Positions 1,548-59,059 of a DNA stretch of 64,000 nt are shown piece after piece; the first letter of the stretch is position 1, and every line of letters starts with the position of its first letter. The translations under genes and the position numbers were made by a program. This stretch comes from Alphaproteobacteria bacterium (GTDB taxonomy: Bacteria; Pseudomonadota; Alphaproteobacteria; UBA828), in contig CAXXVO010000007.1 in NCBI GenBank assembly GCA_963422645.2, forward strand, positions 544,001 through 608,000, given 5' to 3'. Below the pieces are notes generated by a model, which saw nothing but the letters and a program-made list of their open reading frames with translations, was not told the DNA's origin and made no database searches.

Positions 1548-3679
1548 TTATGCATCTGCGCGCTCGCGGAGCGCGACGATGGCGCCGAGCAGCACGAGTC
1601 CGTAGATGATACTGCGCACGGCCTCCGGCAGCATCGTTCCCGTTAGCAGCGAGCCGAGCGCCGTGAACAGCAAGGCGCCGCCGAGGATGCCGACGAAGTG
1701 GCCGCGCCCGCCCGTAATGAGCGTGCCGCCGAGCACCACCACGGCAATCGACTGCAACAGGTATGGATCCCCCATCCCGAAGAACGCCTGCGCGCTGAAA
1801 CCCGAGAAGAGCACGCCCACCAGCGCGGAACAGAAGCCGCTCAGCATGTAGGCGCCGACGATGACGGAGCCTGTCCAGACGCCGGAGAGGCGCGCGACCG
1901 TGACGCTGTTGCCGACCGCGTAGAGCCGCCGCCCGAAGGCTGTCCGGTTGAGGAAGATCGTGGCTGCGATCGCGAAGGCGATCAGGAACCAGCCAATGGG
2001 CGCGATGCCGAGCAGCCGGCCCGAAACGAACCAGCGCAACACGGGCGGCGAGCCGCCGATCGGCGCACCGTCGCTGAAGATGAGCGAAATGCCTTCGAGC
2101 ATGCCCGCCATCGCCAACGTGACGATGATAGGTGACAGCCTGAACAGCACGATCATGAGGCCGTTCAGAAAGCCGATCGCAAGGCCGATCGCCAGCGCGA
2201 GCGGCACCGCCCAATAGGCCGGACCGTCCTCGCCGAAGCAGTAGGTGGTGACGACGATCGCGGGGAAGGTGATGGCCCAGGCGACCGAGAGGTCGAGCCC
2301 GCCGGAAATGATGACCGCGCCCTGCCCGAGACCCAGGATTGCGAGAAAGGCCGTGAACAGCAGGAGGACGTTGAGATAGTCGAGCGCCGACAGGTTCTCC
2401 CCGAAAATCACCACCGTGGCGATCACGATCACGGCGAACATGGCGTAAGTGGGCGTGATGTAGCGCAGCGTGGCCTGGTTGCGAGTGAACCAACCTGCAG
2501 CCGGGCGGGTCAGGTCGGAACCGCCGCGCGCGGCCGCCCGGCCCAGCAGATCCTGCAATAGCCCCTGGCCTCCCGCCGTCACGCTTGTTGCCGGGCCCGC
2601 CGCAAGGGCCCGCGTACTGAGCGCACGCCGCCAGCCGCGCACGGTTTCGACCACCGGCAGGTCCCTGCTCAGTGAAAGGCCGAGAACCGCGAGGATCAGG
2701 ATGGCACCCTCGGCGAGCGGCACGTACCAGGTGCGCATGCCGAGAAGGAGGAAGATCGTCAGGATGATCGTGAGCGTCAGTGCACCGAATATGGAGCCGA
2801 CGCAGCCGCCGCGCCCGCCACCGATCAGCGTCCCGCCGATGACCACCGCCGCAAAAATCTTGAGCAGAAACTTGGCGCCGATCAGCGGGTCGGCGGAGCC
2901 TATCTGGGCCGTCATGAACATGCCGGCGGCGCCGTAACAGACGCCGGCGATGGTGTAGGTCCAGAACTTCGTCATCCGCACGTCGGTGCCGCTCGCCAGC
3001 GCCGACTTCTCGTCGCTGCCGATGGCATAGATGCCTGTGCCCAGGCGCGAGTTGCGAAGCGCCAGCCACAACACGATGACGATCGCGAGCACGAGGATCG
3101 GAGCAGGCAACACCCCGGCGATGGCCTCGCCGGTGAAGAACATGCTGAATTCCCACGGCGCCTCGCCCCCTGCATGGGCCATCACCAGCAGGGCCGCGCC
3201 TTGCGCAATGAACATAGTGGCAAGCGTCACGACGATTGCCGACAGACCGAGAAAGGCTATGAGGAAGCCGTTGATCGCGCCGATCGCCCCGCCCACCGCG
3301 AGCGCGAGCGCGAGCGCCGCCCCGATGAACTCGGCGCCCGAGAGCGCGGCAACATCGGAAGAGAACTCGGAGCCGCCGCCGAGGAACTGAATGATCATGA
3401 CGTTGACGAGCGAGATCACCGCGCCTGCGGACAGGTCGAAGCCGCCGGCGAGGATGACGATGGTCTCGCCGACAGCGGCGAGCGCGAGCGTGGTGGCTCC
3501 GGTGACGATGGAGCTCACGTCGAAATAGCTGATCCCTTCGCCCTTGATGAGCTGCAGGATGATCAGCATCACCAGAAAAACGCCGACCGAAATCAGCAGG
3601 CCACGCTGACGGTTCCAACTCACCGCCGGCAAGCCGACGCGGAGCCACCGCGACGGCGGCGGCAGCAGCGATCGGTCGC

Positions 3680-8470: not shown

Positions 8471-8761
8471 GGCGGCCTCCCACCGGCGGAGCCACCTCCC
8501 CGCTTCACAGGGAAGCGGCGCGCCCGAATACCGCAACGGTAGCACGGGAATCCGCCCGCGGCGTCCTCACTTCTGTGCCGGCACGACCTTGCCGGCGTCC
8601 GCGACCCGCCGGGCGGGAACATCGACGTCGCGGCACTTATTCCAGCTTCTCTTGCGCCAGTGCGGGCGCTATGCTCGCGCCATTCGGAACGATAGGGCCC
8701 GATCGTGCGGAAAACAAAAAGAGGGTAAGCCGGCACAGCGAGGCCACGCAGGAGGCGACCG

Positions 8762-9853
8762 ATGACCAAGCCAGTGCTGAACCTGACGGGCGATCCCGGG
8801 GATCGGGGCCGTGCCCACGGCGAGATCATGTCGAAGGAGATCGGCCAAAACCTCGAGCGCTATCTCAAGCGGTTCCAGATTCTGGGCTTCGAGAAGGATG
8901 CGCTGATGGCCGAATCCGCAAATTGGGCCGAGGCGTTGAGGCCGAAAGACCCGATCTTCTGGGACGAGATCGACGGCGTGGTCGAGGGCTCAGGGCGCAG
9001 CCTGGAGGAGATCACCCTTCTCAACGTGCGCTACGAAATGCTCGTCAACATGATGAAGAGCAATGCTCAGGCGCAGTTCCAGCCCACCGCCATGGACGCC
9101 TGCACCTCCTTCGCGGTGCTGCCCGAGCGCTCGAAGAATGGCGACACCATGATCGGGCAGAACTGGGATTGGGTGAAGGACATCAACACCGTGGTCTCGC
9201 GGGTGCATCGGGACGACGGGCCGGACTTCATCCATATCGGCGAGGTCGGCACCATCGGCGGCCTTCAGGGCGTCAACGAGAATGGCATCGGCGTGGTCAT
9301 AAATGCGCTGCTGACGCCGGAGGACGGCAAGTACGAATACGAGAAGCCCTACCGCATGCGCGTGCGCGACATCCTCAACGCCCGCAACATGCAGGAGGCG
9401 ATCCTCGGCGTGTGCGGCACCAACCGCTCGGTCAGCATGAACTTCCTCATCGCCCATGAGGACGGCATCGCAATCGACATCGAGACCAGCCCCGACAAGG
9501 AGGCCTTCATTTATCCCGAGGACGGGCTGCTCACCCACTCCAACCACTTCTGCGAACTGGATGTGGAATCGGAGGTGGTGAAGCTCTGGCCCAACACCAT
9601 GTACCGCCACGTGCGCCTGGAGCGGCTGCTGCGCCAGTCGCAGGAGCTGGAAGTCTCCACCATCAAGTCGGCGATGGCGGACCACTTCGCCTATCCGCAC
9701 TCGATCTGCGCACACTATGACGAGGACGAGGCGGAGACGCTGCGGCTGCAGAGCAACCATTCGATCATGATTTCGCTGAAGCAGCGGTCGCTCCACATTA
9801 CCGACACGCATCCCTGCGAGTCCGAGTACGAGGAGTATTCGCTCGCCGCCTGA
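8762..9853 (+). CDS. C45 family peptidase / Ntn acyltransferase (AAT-like)
   Basis: DACTS autocleavage site, GQNWDW, GVNENG, THSNHF and SICAH motifs. Confidence 0.9.
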   Translation: MTKPVLNLTGDPGDRGRAHGEIMSKEIGQNLERYLKRFQILGFEKDALMAESANWAEALRPKDPIFWDEIDGVVEGSGRSLEEITLLNVRYEMLVNMMKSNAQAQFQPTAMDACTSFAVLPERSKNGDTMIGQNWDWVKDINTVVSRVHRDDGPDFIHIGEVGTIGGLQGVNENGIGVVINALLTPEDGKYEYEKPYRMRVRDILNARNMQEAILGVCGTNRSVSMNFLIAHEDGIAIDIETSPDKEAFIYPEDGLLTHSNHFCELDVESEVVKLWPNTMYRHVRLERLLRQSQELEVSTIKSAMADHFAYPHSICAHYDEDEAETLRLQSNHSIMISLKQRSLHITDTHPCESEYEEYSLAA

Positions 9854-53003: not shown

Positions 53004-53273
53004 ACCGGGCGAGGCGAAGCCCCGCGCCGCACCCCGATTTACCGGCGAATCCGCACCCCCGGAACCGCCCCGATTTACAGGCCTTTCAGCACCCCTGAAA
53101 CGCCCCGAAAATCACCGTTTCCAGCCAATTCACGGCCCTTTCCGGGCCGGATTCGCAAAGACTTTCGTCCGGCCCGCCAGACCCCGGAAACGCCGCCAAC
53201 CCCTTGACCGTCCGCCATCTTCCGCCTTCTTCCCGGCATCTTCCGGATTCGCAATGACTTTCGTCCCCCTACA

Positions 53274-53538
53274 GCCGTCCACGACCGTGACGGCCGGCCC
53301 ATCGCCATGCTCGGCTTCAGCACCGCGGCGCGAAAGCTCGCACCCCGCGACCGCTTCATCGGATGGACGCCGCAGTCGCGCGAGAAGAACCTCCCGCTTG
53401 TGATCGACAACCCGAGGTTCCTTATTCTGCCCTGGATCGTCATCCCGAACCTGGGCTCGCACATCCTCTCGCTCGTGCGCCGGCAACTGCCCGGCGACTG
53501 GGAGGCGCGCTTCGGAGCGCGCCCGGTTCTGGTGGAGA
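53274..53538 (+). pseudogene. DUF4338 gene, part 2 of 3
   Basis: HDRDGRPIAMLGFS..RDRFIGW..NPRFLILPW..NLGSHILS..PVLVE. Confidence 0.85.
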
Positions 53539-53727
53539 TGAAGGCTTCATAATGCTTCTCCGTTGTGCAGGTGGGCGGGCGTTTCTACCGCATTGATAGA
53601 AAAGGCGGTTTGGATTCCGTTGTTGCCGCCGCGGCGACCTTTACATCGTGCCGGACGTGATTTTCCAGTATCGCACGTTGGAGGTGCGGATCTGCATCGG
53701 GCGTTTTGCCTGACGGTCCGGGCATGG

Positions 53728-55908
53728 TCACCCCCCATCACCGTTGAGCCCGCGCAGCAGCGGCAGTTCGTCCTCGACCGGCAAACGCACATACAGTCCG
53801 CGCGTCTTGCCGCGGGTCACATGGCAGCTGTCCAGCCTGCCCGCCTTGATCCGTTCCCAGACCGTCTGCCGCGTGACACCCAGACGATCCATTGCCACAG
53901 CGAGGGGAACAAACCCCTCCGGAGGCGCCTCACGAAAGCGCTCGCGCAAGGTCGGGGTCATCCGGATCCGAAGAGGAGCACCTTCGATATCGGGCTGGGC
54001 AACCGGAACCAGCCCCTCGCGGATCCAGCGATAGATGGTGTCATCCGAGACTCCGATCTCCTTCGCCACATCGGCAACGCCCATGAGCACCGGCTCGTCC
54101 CCGTCGGGCTGGTAGGGCGCAATGCCATGGCGGCGACGCAGGCTGCCAACAAGCTCGGCCGTGAAATCCAGACCCCGTGCTGTGCGCCGTCCCTGGCGGG
54201 TGAGAACCTTCGCGGTCTCCCGGTCGTTGTAAAAGCATGACAGCTTGCGCACGAGCTCGACCGTGCTGCGCTCATCGCGCCGGGGTGTCGGAGAGCCCGC
54301 GAGCATCGGCAAAGTGATCTCGTCGATCTGCCCGCCACGCCAGCGCAATGTTGCCATGATCTCACGCTCCTGTCGCGCAAGCTCGATCGTCACCTCGTCG
54401 AGGAGGCAGGCGAGCAGGCGCTTGCGCTCGCGCATGGTCGTCGACGACGCCCCCCAGACCTGCGACAGGCGCGCGCCGAGACCCTCGAAAACCGCCGGGG
54501 CAGGGGCCGCGGGCTGACGCGCCCGTGCCGCCTCAAGCGCTTCCTGTGCAGCCTTCTCGGCGCGAAGCGCCTTCTCCCACTCGCGCTCCAGCGTTGCCGC
54601 AATCAGACGGTTGTCGGGATCGACCTGCTTTTAGCGCCGCTCGGCAAGCCGCGCCTCGTACCGGCAGTGCTCAAGATCCAGCTCCCAACGGCGCAACGCG
54701 CGCAGGCCGCGTTCAGCAACATCACAAGCCGCCTGCCGGGCCGCCTCCACCCCCGCCGGCGTGACCGCATCGAGAAACAGACGGGCAACTTCCGCATCAA
54801 CGCGCTTGCCGCCTGTCGACCAACAACCGCCGCGCCGGCGCGCAGCATCGCGCTTGCGGCACTCATACCCCCAGCCCGTCTTGCTGTAGTAGACGGTCAT
54901 CGGCAATCCGCAGCCGCCGCAGACCGCGAGACCCTGGAGCAGAGCCGACCCTTCCCGCGCCGCGCCGCGGGCTCCGTCCGGAGCCATGTGGTTGCGGGCC
55001 AGCTGCTCCTGTACTTCAAGCCATTCTGCCCAACTGACATATCCCTCATGCTTCTCCGGCTGAAGAATATCCCAGCGCTCCTGGACCGGCCGCAGCGGCG
55101 CACCGTGACCAACGCCGCGTTTGAAGCCGTAGGCATAGGCGCCGCCCATCGCCGGGTTGGTGAGGATGCGGTACACCCGTTCATAGCGCGCCGGGCCCCA
55201 TTCCAATGCTGCCCCCGGGTGCCGGCGAGAGGGAACATCCTCGCCCGCCTCACGCAGCAGCATCGTCGCCTGGCGGGCCGAACCGGCTTGCCGAAAACGC
55301 GCAAAGACCGTTGCAATCGCCGCCTGAACCCGGGCATCCGGATCCTTCCGCAAAGTCGAGCCATCCCGCACAAATCCGATCGGAACGCGCGAGTACAACT
55401 CGCCACGAAGCGCCTTGTTCCGCTTTCCGCCCTCCATCCGGGCGCGAATAAGAGACAGCTCAGCGGCGCTCACGGTTCCCTTGATCCCCAGGACAAGGGA
55501 GTCGTCGTCCCGGCTCGGGCAGTAGATGTGGCAGTCCTCAACCAGAACCGTGTCGTGCCTGCGACATAGATCGAGAAGCTGAAACCATTCCATCGTGTTC
55601 CTGGCGAGCCGCGAAACCTCAATCCCGAAGATGCCCCCGACATGGTCCCGGGCGATCAGGTCGCACATCTCCCGAAAGCCGCCACGCTCGCCGCGCGCCT
55701 TCTCGCTTGCGCTCTCGCCAAGATCGGCGTCGATCGTCCGTATCCGCTCGGCCGGCCAGCCAATCTCCCGGGCACGCTCGCCAAGCGCGTATTGGCGCAG
55801 CTGCGATTCCTGGTGCGCGTTCACTTGCAAGGGTGTCGACTGGCGAACGTAGACAACTGCAAGACGCTCAAGATGACGCTGGGTGATCTTCGACGGATCG
55901 ACCGTCAT
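53728..55908 (-). pseudogene. Large serine recombinase with C-terminal HTH; in-frame TAA at 54631
   Basis: AVVYVRQST, DADLGES, EVSRLARN, LLQGLAVCGGCG and ERR*KQVDPDNRL; one frame throughout. Confidence 0.9.
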
Positions 55909-56059
55909 CGGCCGCCTCCCGATCCGCAATCCGAACCATCAGATCGGCCAGACCCTGCACGACGCGATCCCGGTCCGGAGCCGGAAACGCCAGCCACCGG
56001 TCCCGGCGCTCCTCCCACTCCATCAGCGCGATCAGCGCCAACTCCTGCTCCGCATCCAT
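55868..56059 (-). CDS. Small hypothetical protein upstream of the recombinase
   Basis: W.AFPAPDRDRVVQGLADLM; overlaps the recombinase start. Confidence 0.5.
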   Translation of the reverse strand: MDAEQELALIALMEWEERRDRWLAFPAPDRDRVVQGLADLMVRIADREAADDGRSVEDHPASS

Positions 56060-56123
56060 CGCGCCTGAGTTCCCTCTCATCAAGGTCATTCAGAAGATTA
56101 AGGAGGGTGAGGAAATCAGACAA

Positions 56124-57174
56124 ACCGCTTATGCACATGGCTCCGGTTCGATCAACATGCTGTAGGTAAGGGGTTTTGCATTGGTGGCGATGCGGAAGAG
56201 CGAGCGGAAAGCAGCGTGGCGGGTTTTGCGGCGGTTGAAGCGAAAGGCGAACTCATCGAGATAGGCCTGCAGATGCTTGCGGCGCAGCCCGTGGTAGACG
56301 CCTCGCGCCCATCCTTTGAGGTTGGAGAAGACTTGGTGGATCCACGGCAGGACGAGGTGAGCGGCGGTCTTCCCGACGACATGGACATTGTGGCGATCGG
56401 CGGGGACCGCAGCGTAGCCGGACCAGCCGTCGGTTTTCGCGATGGCGTCGGGATCGGCGGCGGTTTCGACGAAGTGTCCGAGGTCGGCGGCGCCGTAGGA
56501 GGAGATTTCGGCCAGCCGCAGGCGGCCCGGGATGGTTCCATCCCCCAGTTCGATGGCGCCGACGATGAGCATCTTGCCGTCGTGGCTGCGTCCTTGCCCT
56601 CCGGTGGGAGGATCGTCTTTGGTCCGGAATGGAAGGCTGGCCTCGTCGATTTCCACCAGGCCCGACAACGGGTTGCGCTCGGGGTCGACCATGCTGGCGC
56701 GCAGCTTGTGGGCGAGCAGCCAAGCGCTGCGGTAAGAGCCGATACCGAGCTGTTTCTGGAGCTGCAGGGCAGAGATGCCGTTGGAGTGGGTCGCCATCAG
56801 GTAGGCGGCCCAGAACCAGACGGTGAGCGGCAGCTTGCTGGCGTGCAGGATCGTCCCGGCCGTCACCGAGGTCTGCCGGCGGCAGCCGGCGCACTCGAAG
56901 GTGTGTGCTTTTCTGCGCAGCGCCCATCCCTTTTCATGGCCGCACGCGGGACAGACGAAGCCGTCCGGCCAGCGCATTTCGATCAGCCAGGCGGCGCAGG
57001 CGTCATCGTCCGGGAACATGTGCTGGAAGGCGAGGAGGCTGTCGGCGACCTGTTTCATGTGGTGGCTCCGTCGGCAGGAACGTATAGGCAACATTCTACC
57101 CGTTCTCCCGCCCTAACCTCAACCTCAACATCTGGTGGCAAACTCTCGCGACCGGAGCCATGTGCATAAGCGGT
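56124..57174 (-). mobile_element. IS1595-family element
   Basis: IR ACCGCTTATGCACATGGCTCCGGT at both ends; 8-bp TSD TCAGACAA. Confidence 0.95.
56129..57058 (-). CDS. IS1595 transposase
   Basis: RWPDGFVCPAC, VEIDE, TDGWSGY and YLDEFAFRFNRR. Confidence 0.95.
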   Translation of the reverse strand: MKQVADSLLAFQHMFPDDDACAAWLIEMRWPDGFVCPACGHEKGWALRRKAHTFECAGCRRQTSVTAGTILHASKLPLTVWFWAAYLMATHSNGISALQLQKQLGIGSYRSAWLLAHKLRASMVDPERNPLSGLVEIDEASLPFRTKDDPPTGGQGRSHDGKMLIVGAIELGDGTIPGRLRLAEISSYGAADLGHFVETAADPDAIAKTDGWSGYAAVPADRHNVHVVGKTAAHLVLPWIHQVFSNLKGWARGVYHGLRRKHLQAYLDEFAFRFNRRKTRHAAFRSLFRIATNAKPLTYSMLIEPEPCA

Positions 57175-57182
57175 TCAGACAA

Positions 57183-57415
57183 CTCTCCGATCAGGCGTGG
57201 TGCATCCTCGGGACGGGCTCCAAGGCTCGTCCATGCCGCTGGTATCCAACAACAGCTGCCGTCCGGCATCCGAACCTTCAGAGTCCGGCCCCCGTAACCT
57301 CCTTTGCGCCGATCGAGAATCTCGATCGCCTCACCGTCGAAAGGATGCTTGTAGCGTCGAATGCGAACGGGCTCAGGAGCCTCGGAAGCCTGCAAGATAG
57401 TAGTCTGTGACGTTC
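57183..57415 (-). pseudogene. DUF5372/Y4bD-like ORF lacking its own start; interrupted by IS1595
   Basis: HPFDG...MPDGSCCWIPAAWTSL; frame continues after IS1595 (ELS|DFLTLL). Confidence 0.6.
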
Positions 57416-57422
57416 GTGGAGA

Positions 57423-57598
57423 CCTTCGTCGAGACGCCCCGCTACACCGGCGCCGTCTACAAGGCATCCGGCTGGATCCGCGTCGGGACCACCCAGGGGC
57501 GCGGGCGCTACGACACGCACATGAAGCGGGCCGAGCCCAGGAAGGACATCTGGCTGCGGCCTCTCCGACGAGACTGGAAGCGGACACTCAATCGGTGA
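57423..57598 (+). pseudogene. DUF4338 gene, part 3 of 3
   Basis: TFVETPRYTGAVYKASGWIRVGTTQGRGR...PLRRDWKRTLNR*. Confidence 0.85.
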
Positions 57599-57633
57599 AA
57601 TCACCATCCATCACCTGAGAACGGAAGCATTAC

Positions 57634-59059
57634 ATAGGGGTAGACATCGAGGTCGAGCTTCGGCGGGCGCTTCTCGAGGCGGCACAGCACCAGGTGCTTG
57701 ACCGCGTCGAAGCCTATGGCGCCCAGGCGCAGGGCATCCTTCACTGCGGCGTGGAGATCCTCCAGCCCGAAGCTCTCCAGCAGCCGCAGGACCTGCACGT
57801 ACTCCCGCCGCCCCGCCTTGAGCGCGCGTGCCTCCATCAGGCGGCGCAGGGTCTGGAAGGCGGGCGGCAGGTCCCATCCGGCGAGCGGCGCTGCCTGGTC
57901 CAGGGCGCCGATCTTCTGCTCGATCAGGGGCAGATAGTGGATCGGCTCGAAGATCATGTCCTCACGCTCATAGGACCGGGGATGGCGGGCGATGACGTCT
58001 CCGCCACAGCCGATCACCACTCGATCGACGTAACCGCGTACCCAGACGTCACGATGGCCATAGGCCACCGGCACCGAGTAGTCGTTGGTCCGATAGCGAA
58101 CCAGAGACTGCGAGCTGACCTGGCCGGGAGCCTGGTCACAGGCCTCGAAGGGCGTAGCCGGCGGCGCGGCCATGGCCGCCACATCCCGCGCCAGGCGCTC
58201 TCCGATGGTCTCGCGGTGTCCGCGCAGGATATCGCCCTGGCGGCTGTGGCATTGCTCCTCGAGCCGCAGGTTGAACTCTTCCCAGCTCGCAAACCGTGGC
58301 AGCGGCACCATGAAGTTGCGCCGGGCGAAGCCCACCAGACCCTCGACCGCGCCCTTGTCGTTCCCCTTGCCCGGACGCCCGTAACGATCATGCACGAGGT
58401 AGTGCGACAGGAACCCGTTGAAGAGCCCCGCCCGCTTGCGCGTCCCGTCCGCCAGGATGCGCGACACCAGGCAGCGGTCGTTGTCGTAGAGAACCCGATC
58501 GGGGAACCCCGCCGAAGAAGGCGAAGGCATGCACATGCCCGTCCATCCACGCCTCGGCCGTCGCCGCAGGGTAGGCCCGCACGTAGCAGGCGTCGCTGTG
58601 CGGAAGATCGAACACGAAGAAGTGCGCCTTGCGCGCGATACCCCCGATCACCGCCCGCGCCTCGCCGAAGTCCGCCTGCCCATGCCCCGGCGGATGGATC
58701 AGCGGCACGAACATCTCTCGCCGCCGGCGCCGATGCTCGCGCACATGATCCTTCACAATCGTGTAGCCGCCGCTGAACCCGTGCTCGGCCCGAAGACGGT
58801 CGAAAATGCGCTTCGCCGTGTGCCGCTGCTTGGGCAGCTGCTCCAGATCGTCCCGCAGCCACCCGTCGATGATCTCGATGAACCCGTCCAGCTTCGGACG
58901 CCGAAGCGGCGCCGTCCGCCGATAGCCCGGCGGCGCCGAAAACTGCAGCATCTTCTTCACGCTCTCGCGTGAAATCCCGAAGTGACGCGCCGCAGCCCGC
59001 TCACTCATCCCGTCCCGGCAGGCGAGACGGACCTTCCGATAAAGTTCCACGGTATGCAT
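57634..59059 (-). pseudogene. istA: IS21-B transposase, interrupted, with +1 frameshift near 58495
   Basis: PGHGQADFG, FFGGVPRS/VLYDN and NDKGAVE. Confidence 0.9.

Follow-up and report, generated by a model that had tools for sequence, protein, structure and literature searches.

How is a gene translated when it lies at the edge of a mobile element, its reading frame runs to the very end of that element and no ATG is found in it? The question is raised by a 64,000-nucleotide (nt) stretch of DNA from an Alphaproteobacteria bacterium (UBA828; assembly GCA_963422645.2, contig CAXXVO010000007.1, positions 544,001–608,000 of the forward strand), which we call the window and whose coordinates are used throughout. 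Positions 53532–57422 of the window hold one of at least 11 copies in this genome of a 2.8-kb element that encodes, all on the minus strand and starting from its right end, an open reading frame (ORF) resembling DUF5372, a small ORF (ORF2) and a large serine recombinase (LSR). Judging from the sequence comparisons described below, we consider it likely that circularization joins a ribosome-binding site (RBS) and an ATG to the DUF5372-like ORF, which is without them when integrated, and that the coding sequence built at this junction is real.

A putative translation start at the far end of the element

The features of the element in the window are as follows.

53532–53538, no strand: left core GTGGAGA, with exchange within GAGA (53535–53538)
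53539–53727, minus strand: distal non-coding end, 3′ of the recombinase stop, which is the distal arm of attP, the site formed by the joined ends (from the sequence)
53548–53550, minus strand: outward ATG, in frame with the DUF5372-like ORF once the ends are joined (sequence and join script)
53558–53561, minus strand: outward Shine–Dalgarno (SD) motif GGAG, 7 nt 5′ of the ATG (sequence and join script)
53728–55908, minus strand: LSR gene, interrupted by a TAA at 54631–54633 (Pfam)
55868–56089, minus strand: ORF2, 73 amino acids, overlapping the tail of the DUF5372-like frame (ORF list)
55905–56115, minus strand: 3′ part of the DUF5372-like ORF, a low-complexity tail whose TGA overlaps the recombinase ATG (from an intact copy)
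57183–57415, minus strand: 5′ part of the DUF5372-like ORF, with a TTG at 57395–57393 and no ATG, its frame open as far as the end of the element (sequence and Pfam)
57416–57422, no strand: right core GTGGAGA (sequence and junction comparison)

The original prediction, made from the letters of the window, described two ends that fit together, and the sequence agrees with it on both. At the left end the minus strand reads outward through GGAG (53561–53558), a 7-nt spacer and ATG (53550–53548). At the right end the DUF5372-like frame is open from an insertion that splits it up to and through the right core, with no ATG within the element; the TTG at 57395–57393 is the sole canonical in-frame start there before the domain. 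When the two ends are joined in silico, the ATG is in frame with the DUF5372-like ORF and begins 19 nt before the end of the core, and the other two frames are without an ATG. A script thus reproduces the in-frame join that had been predicted. Shuffling the last 80 nt 20,000 times gave an SD motif with an in-frame ATG no more than 30 nt from the joint at P = 0.0022.

The ends on which this join depends are fixed, together with the core, by nine paired copies of the element in three flank types. Counting junctions in the genome gave 11 left and 10 right ends, which make up nine pairs; five pairs are 2825 nt long, two are 2827 nt and the other two are longer through insertions. The right core is GTGGAGA in all ten right junctions, whereas the left core is GTGGAGA in eight of 11 and ATCGAGA in the remaining three, so that identity between left and right is restricted to GAGA in three of the nine pairs. 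The coexistence of ATCGAGA left cores with uniform right cores places the exchange within GAGA, and attP is therefore the very join that was proposed.

The in-frame join recurs in related elements

The original prediction had also proposed that related elements be circularized in silico. A locus search with the single protein gave three related loci, and several genomes from the genus of the window organism encode recombinases 36–40% identical to that of the window, usually in more than one copy. Ends of families were defined either from copies with different flanks or by rebuilding the interrupted target gene. Besides F0, the family of the window element, the following were used; their shared cores are 2–5 nt long.

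FB: genome G037 (three flanks), with G038, G040 and G041 by homology; ends from copies with different flanks; core CG
FE: genome G034; ends from copies with different flanks
FC: genome G033; target, the YN..RPH motif of IS3-type transposases; core TTGTA
FF: genome G038; target, the IstB Walker A motif; core GA
FG: genomes G238 and G202 (seven copies and one copy); ends from copies with different flanks
FH, a sixth family: plasmid pWW53 and a Mycetohabitans megaplasmid; target, group II intron reverse-transcriptase genes, in antisense

The scripted join places an ATG in frame in eight of nine lineages, 16–25 nt from the end of the shared core. A strict SD motif (GGAG or GAGG) stands 6–8 nt 5′ of this ATG in seven of the nine, eight have no SD plus ATG in either of the other frames, and the shuffle P per lineage ranges from 0.0022 to 0.0151. 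FH came from a plasmid search, and its empty sites were rebuilt from the reverse-transcriptase motif on the TOL plasmid pWW53 and on the Mycetohabitans megaplasmid. Both of these joins, made by hand, put the ATG in frame and have an AAGGG tract 7 nt 5′ of it. Altogether, ten of the 11 lineages with definable ends are in frame, with the ATG 11–25 nt from the joint, in five families and three proteobacterial classes (Alpha-, Beta- and Gammaproteobacteria).

Further relatives lie outside this count. The distal end of the FD elements, which sit beside ssb paralogs, was not located, and FD counts neither way. FD copies (L069, L070, L074 and L068) have a truncated ssb copy on one side and, on the other, a complete ssb paralog with its terminator. 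Homology among them extends 1.9 kb or more beyond the recombinase, and the FD element may be larger and carry cargo. In a relative at locus L106, the distal end and the other half of the target are lost; a long perfect inverted repeat with arms of about 30 nt follows its recombinase gene at about 8730–8900, where the distal end would be expected. The element at L107 is decayed, with a TGA before the domain and insertion sequence (IS) insertions. In the relative from G028, a genome that is 62% complete, the distal end was not found.

Evidence against a junction start, and the case for internal starts

Several observations weigh against a start at the junction. Since the families share ancestry, ten in-frame lineages of 11 do not amount to 11 independent trials, and in three FB lineages homology alone set the ends. 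FG is out of frame: its distal GAGG, 9-nt spacer and ATG open an out-of-register frame of 14 codons. The stop of this leader lies 4 nt short of a GTG that is in frame in the DUF5372 ORF, a layout that could still pass ribosomes on by re-initiation, and we counted it as a miss. Simple scans of three distal ends detected neither a sigma-70-like promoter nor a terminator, although promoters of these hosts may depart from the consensus. The distance from the recombinase stop to the ATG is only about 18 nt on pWW53, so transcription of the circle may simply run round. The attP 31-mer and 43-mer are absent from the assembly. Contigs of four sequencing runs, a form of data that drops rare forms, contain the 2825-nt skip (empty-site) joint only and no back-joint; the skip joint can be explained by the many empty paralogous sites, and these contigs weigh neither for nor against a circle.

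The remaining points of this kind bear on a different explanation, namely that translation starts internally (at the TTG 57395–57393 in F0 and at a GTG or ATG elsewhere) and that the outward ATG and its purine tract are a by-product of the attP arm. All five FB and FE lineages share a conserved GTG immediately 5′ of the domain, on which position 1 of the Pfam DUF5372 profile falls. The 19 codons from the joint to this GTG evolve neutrally, with a ratio of non-synonymous to synonymous polymorphism (pN/pS) of 0.7–3.8, and their variable sites are spread over the three codon positions as 9/13/11, against 35/24/54 in the domain; the stretch shows no change of length in the five lineages. FG likewise has a GTG, and its joined ATG is the one out of frame. 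In a decayed relative from G321, an ATG stands four codons ahead of the HPF motif. In G136 a DUF5372 gene downstream of another gene has a GGAG-7-GTG start of its own, and the DUF5372 family is therefore not always split. Many predicted homologues begin 3–5 residues before the domain. Finally, the SD motif and ATG lie within the distal attP arm, which repeats the proximal arm imperfectly in inverted orientation (19 of 36 positions identical in FB), and their conservation may in part serve recombinase binding; by our own reading of the arm comparison, the two arms differ at the positions that make the purine tract and the ATG.

However, the candidate internal starts do not hold their place. Within F0 the TTG stands 16 codons before the HPF motif in the window copy and L106, the G028 relative has no internal start at all, and the G321 relative has its ATG at four codons; on the sequences aligned, no internal start is conserved in position across the family of the window element. 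The original prediction had singled out the TTG, at the residues ILQ, as a start that homologues might share, and it is absent in the G028 relative. FF, pWW53, Mycetohabitans, Cupriavidus and the G028 relative have no canonical start anywhere from the joint to the conserved domain, and no internal GTG or TTG has an SD motif at a working distance. Residues 5′ of the TTG are conserved among distant homologues, and in the pWW53 group synonymous changes are present ahead of any internal start. We judge an internal start unlikely on balance. The claim that excision builds a coding sequence is supported in part, by the frame test across lineages, but not by FG, which is out of frame, nor by FB and FE, with their conserved GTG.

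The flanks offer another source of a start. If the ORF were translated while integrated, from starts or transcripts supplied by the flank, it would form a read-in fusion, and the frame is indeed open into the flank; the window copy even has an in-frame flank ATG at 57467–57465, without an SD motif. Yet flanks vary among copies, 13 of 29 integrated copies (including all five FF copies) have no in-frame flank start, and a start linked to an SD motif occurs in only one of the 29, at a distance of 727 nt. The element is also antisense to its target in every case seen. We regard read-in translation as highly improbable.

Annotation records give a further view of the start. Three annotated plasmid records have coding sequence (CDS) features for the small ORF and the recombinase and none for the DUF5372-like frame. 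In the plasmid search, 17 of 22 records are unannotated under the DUF5372-like match, a figure taken from a gene table that omits pseudogenes and from records of which at least one is almost unannotated. Such uncalled frames fit a gene without a start that can be called.

Possible coupling of the DUF5372-like frame to the recombinase

In an intact copy of the element the DUF5372-like ORF is a single frame of 152 codons. The frame is open for 146–158 codons in F0, the G028 relative, L106, FF and FG, and in all of these its TGA overlaps the recombinase ATG (ATGA); in FC the overlap is TAATG. GGAG-type motifs stand 6 nt before the recombinase ATG. There is no such overlap in FB, which has a helix-turn-helix (HTH) gene in between. 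This arrangement suggests coupled translation, in which a reading begun at the junction would be handed on to the recombinase. The overlap was seen at 55905–55908 in the window and at loci L007, L040, L110 and L126. The extra gene of FB (HTH_32/HTH_23/HTH_28; positions 3193–3687 of L059) lies between the DUF5372 gene and the recombinase, and in a related element of G041 (L029) an HTH gene has its own ATG 12 nt from the element end.

The tail of the DUF5372-like frame is not conserved and overlaps ORF2, which is conserved and in another frame. Pfam gives no match for the ORF2 peptide, which the G028 relative also has in conserved form. Rfam gives none for the distal end of the window element.

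The DUF5372-like protein

Against the Pfam profile DUF5372 (PF17342), the ORF of the window gives an E value of 0.0047 and 17.4 bits and that of an intact copy 19.9 bits, below the gathering cut-off of 25 bits; the FB and FF ORFs score 74.5 and 26.3 bits. A profile built from homologues of the window ORF recovers the FB, FE, FF and FG ORFs. Because the score is below the cut-off while the homologue profile links the families, we call the protein DUF5372-like. HMMER lists 66 homologues, eight of them below 1e-10; a word-index protein search with a 100-amino-acid ORF gave no match.

It could be argued that the frame in F0 is not translated at all, being open by chance or kept as attP DNA. The sub-threshold Pfam score allows this, as does the high G+C content, which keeps many frames open. 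Selection points the other way: the domain is under purifying selection, with a pN/pS of 0.15 in F0 (versus L106), 0.22 in FF and 0.25–0.53 in FB and FE. The number of homologues, a confidently predicted fold and a frame whose end falls precisely on the recombinase ATG in six lineages also stand against an untranslated frame, to which we give very little credence. In F0 and FF the sequence 5′ of the domain also has the look of coding DNA, with pN/pS values of 0.37 and 0.24 based on few sites, and it varies in length by whole codons (9 nt in L106, 6 nt in the G028 relative).

The predicted structure is a small SH3/KOW/Tudor-like barrel with a C-terminal helix and a disordered stretch before it (predicted local distance difference test (pLDDT) score of 82). 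Fold searches returned generic small barrels only, with a best Foldseek E value of 0.038 and VIA Z values of at most 4.8, and hence no function can be assigned from the fold.

Damage to the window copy

The window copy is broken twice, as originally predicted, by an IS1595-family insertion in the DUF5372-like ORF and by a TAA at 54631–54633 in the recombinase gene.

56124–57174, minus strand: IS1595-family insertion splitting the DUF5372-like ORF, with transposase at 56129–57094 and the duplication TCAGACAA at its flanks (Pfam and repeats)

The insertion has perfect 25-nt inverted repeats (56123–56147 and 57151–57175), an 8-bp duplication on each side and a transposase that matches DDE_Tnp_IS1595 (PF12762, 5.7e-26) behind an N-terminal zinc ribbon (PF12760, 1e-12), which together place it in the family. 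Intact copies of the element are without it. The recombinase TAA is present in two copies, that of the window and one on contig 13, and the recombinase is split in two copies; six other copies encode an uninterrupted recombinase of 726 amino acids.

The recombinase and its targets

The recombinase matches Resolvase (PF00239, 2.1e-17), Recombinase (PF07508, 7.5e-10) and, at its C terminus, HTH_17 (4.8e-11); the match to Zn_ribbon_recom (PF13408, 2.4e-5) is, at 25.0 bits, just below the cut-off of 25.3. In an alignment of seven recombinases, R22, Q23 and S24 of the catalytic region and C330, C333, C350 and C362 of the zinc ribbon are invariant. With its catalytic domain, its Recombinase and zinc-ribbon regions and a short core, the enzyme is an LSR. 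Its gene is whole in integrated copies and attP lies in the first gene of the operon, which sets the element apart from systems with attP inside the recombinase gene.

The target in the window is a DruA/DUF4338-like gene, read in the opposite direction.

53307–53531, plus strand: 5′ part of the target gene (Pfam DruA PF14236, E value 6.7e-17, profile positions 99–177)
57423–57598, plus strand: 3′ part of the target gene (Pfam DruA, E value 2.7e-4, profile positions 186–225)

Insertion is site-specific: all copies of the element lie within genes of the DruA/DUF4338 type, in the three flank types, and uninterrupted DruA-like paralogs read straight across the insertion site. In one flank type the interrupted sequence is the N-terminal domain of an IS4-like transposase, of which the genome has about 15 more copies that are uninterrupted. 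Each element family inserts in a conserved motif of another mobile element's gene (seen in the window and at L064–L067, L109–L112, L135 and L136), the targets being the 'VETF' region of DruA/DUF4338, the YN..RPH motif of IS3-type transposases, the IstB Walker A motif and the group II intron reverse-transcriptase motif.

Other mobile DNA surrounds the target gene. Just 5′ of the truncated DruA-like gene, a stretch of 42–46 nt (53232–53277) has exact repeats at about 30 sites in the genome; it probably marks the end of a further repeat element, by which the 5′ part of this gene was removed. On the other side, IS21-type istA-like ORFs of 311 and 223 amino acids (57601–59059, minus strand) adjoin it, in a region where nested mobile elements cluster.

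A proposed start codon that follows the integration state

We propose the following model. The element would be a minimal integrative element moved by its LSR, with attP four to six codons inside its first gene. While it is integrated, the RBS, the ATG and the first few codons would lie at the far end and point into the flank, and the near end would hold the body of the DUF5372-like gene, with no start for its translation. When the element leaves the chromosome and closes into a circle, both parts would be joined, allowing ribosomes to start at the junction ATG and read across attP, and translation of the recombinase would probably be boosted through the stop/start overlap in most families. 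Expression would then be on in the circle and off in the chromosome, favouring re-integration followed by silence. Circle formation, use of the ATG, coupling to the recombinase and a role for the protein are what we infer from the comparisons above. With low confidence, we suggest that the DUF5372-like protein helps the recombinase in the integration phase. A role as a directionality factor, as first supposed, fits poorly with a protein made only after excision.

A more far-reaching form of this model is that such elements form a widespread class of mini-elements in Alpha-, Beta- and Gammaproteobacteria (including that of pWW53), in which the attP-split start is an obligatory on/off switch, the whole mobility operon is translated efficiently only when excised and DUF5372 is a new integration-phase partner of the recombinase. 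This we put forward tentatively, as a proposal that falls a little short of an even chance.

If the junction start is used, it would explain why the first gene goes uncalled in annotation, and it predicts an N terminus that no linear genome annotation can yield. DUF5372 would gain a context, as a gene tied to the excised form. The same arrangement would offer a compact natural design with which serine-integrase tools could report or gate the integration state, and it would define a family of small, high-copy elements that insert in conserved motifs of other mobile elements' genes.

Comparison with known systems

LSR transposons (Tn4451 and Tn5397) and multi-targeting LSR elements have the LSR as their sole mobility enzyme, a short core and many sites. 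The present element differs from these in having no cargo, at least 11 copies in one genome, targets that are motifs in the genes of other mobile elements and a DUF5372 gene in first position.

State-dependent expression is known at the level of promoters, and genes split by attP in archaeal integrases and a phage repressor. IS1111/IS110 elements, ISEc11 among them, are an established case of circle-dependent promoters (PMC11187229), and so are ICEclc (Pcir), ICEKp1 (P3′end), Tn916 and, with TnpX, Tn4451/Tn4453 (PMC13023037). The likeness is that expression of mobility genes depends on the joined ends, and Tn4451 is also moved by an LSR. In those systems, however, a promoter is assembled or placed upstream of a coding sequence that is whole in both states, whereas here the RBS, the start codon and the first four to six codons are parted from the ORF.

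Genes interrupted by attP are known from the archaeal 'suicidal' integrases (SSV-type, pTN3 and pT26-2), in which attP lies inside a gene that is whole only in the circle, and which are described as exclusive to Archaea (PMC8371274). Those are tyrosine recombinases, and the integrase itself is cut into two large halves. The present element is bacterial and uses a serine recombinase; the split gene is an accessory one, and only its start region is detached. In mycobacteriophage BPs and its relatives, attP lies within the repressor gene, and the protein differs between the integrated and the free state (PMC4557955). BPs is a phage with a tyrosine integrase in which the 3′ end of the repressor gene is exchanged, whereas the element described here, 2.6–3.4 kb long and with no other cargo, exchanges the 5′ start region of its DUF5372-like gene.

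Our literature search, whose coverage excluded subscription journals, found no mention of 'DUF5372' and no attP-split start codon in a serine-recombinase element. Compared with these systems, what is probably new, as read from the sequences, is that a bacterial element with a serine recombinase has the very start of translation separated from its gene, which would make it a variant of circle-dependent expression.

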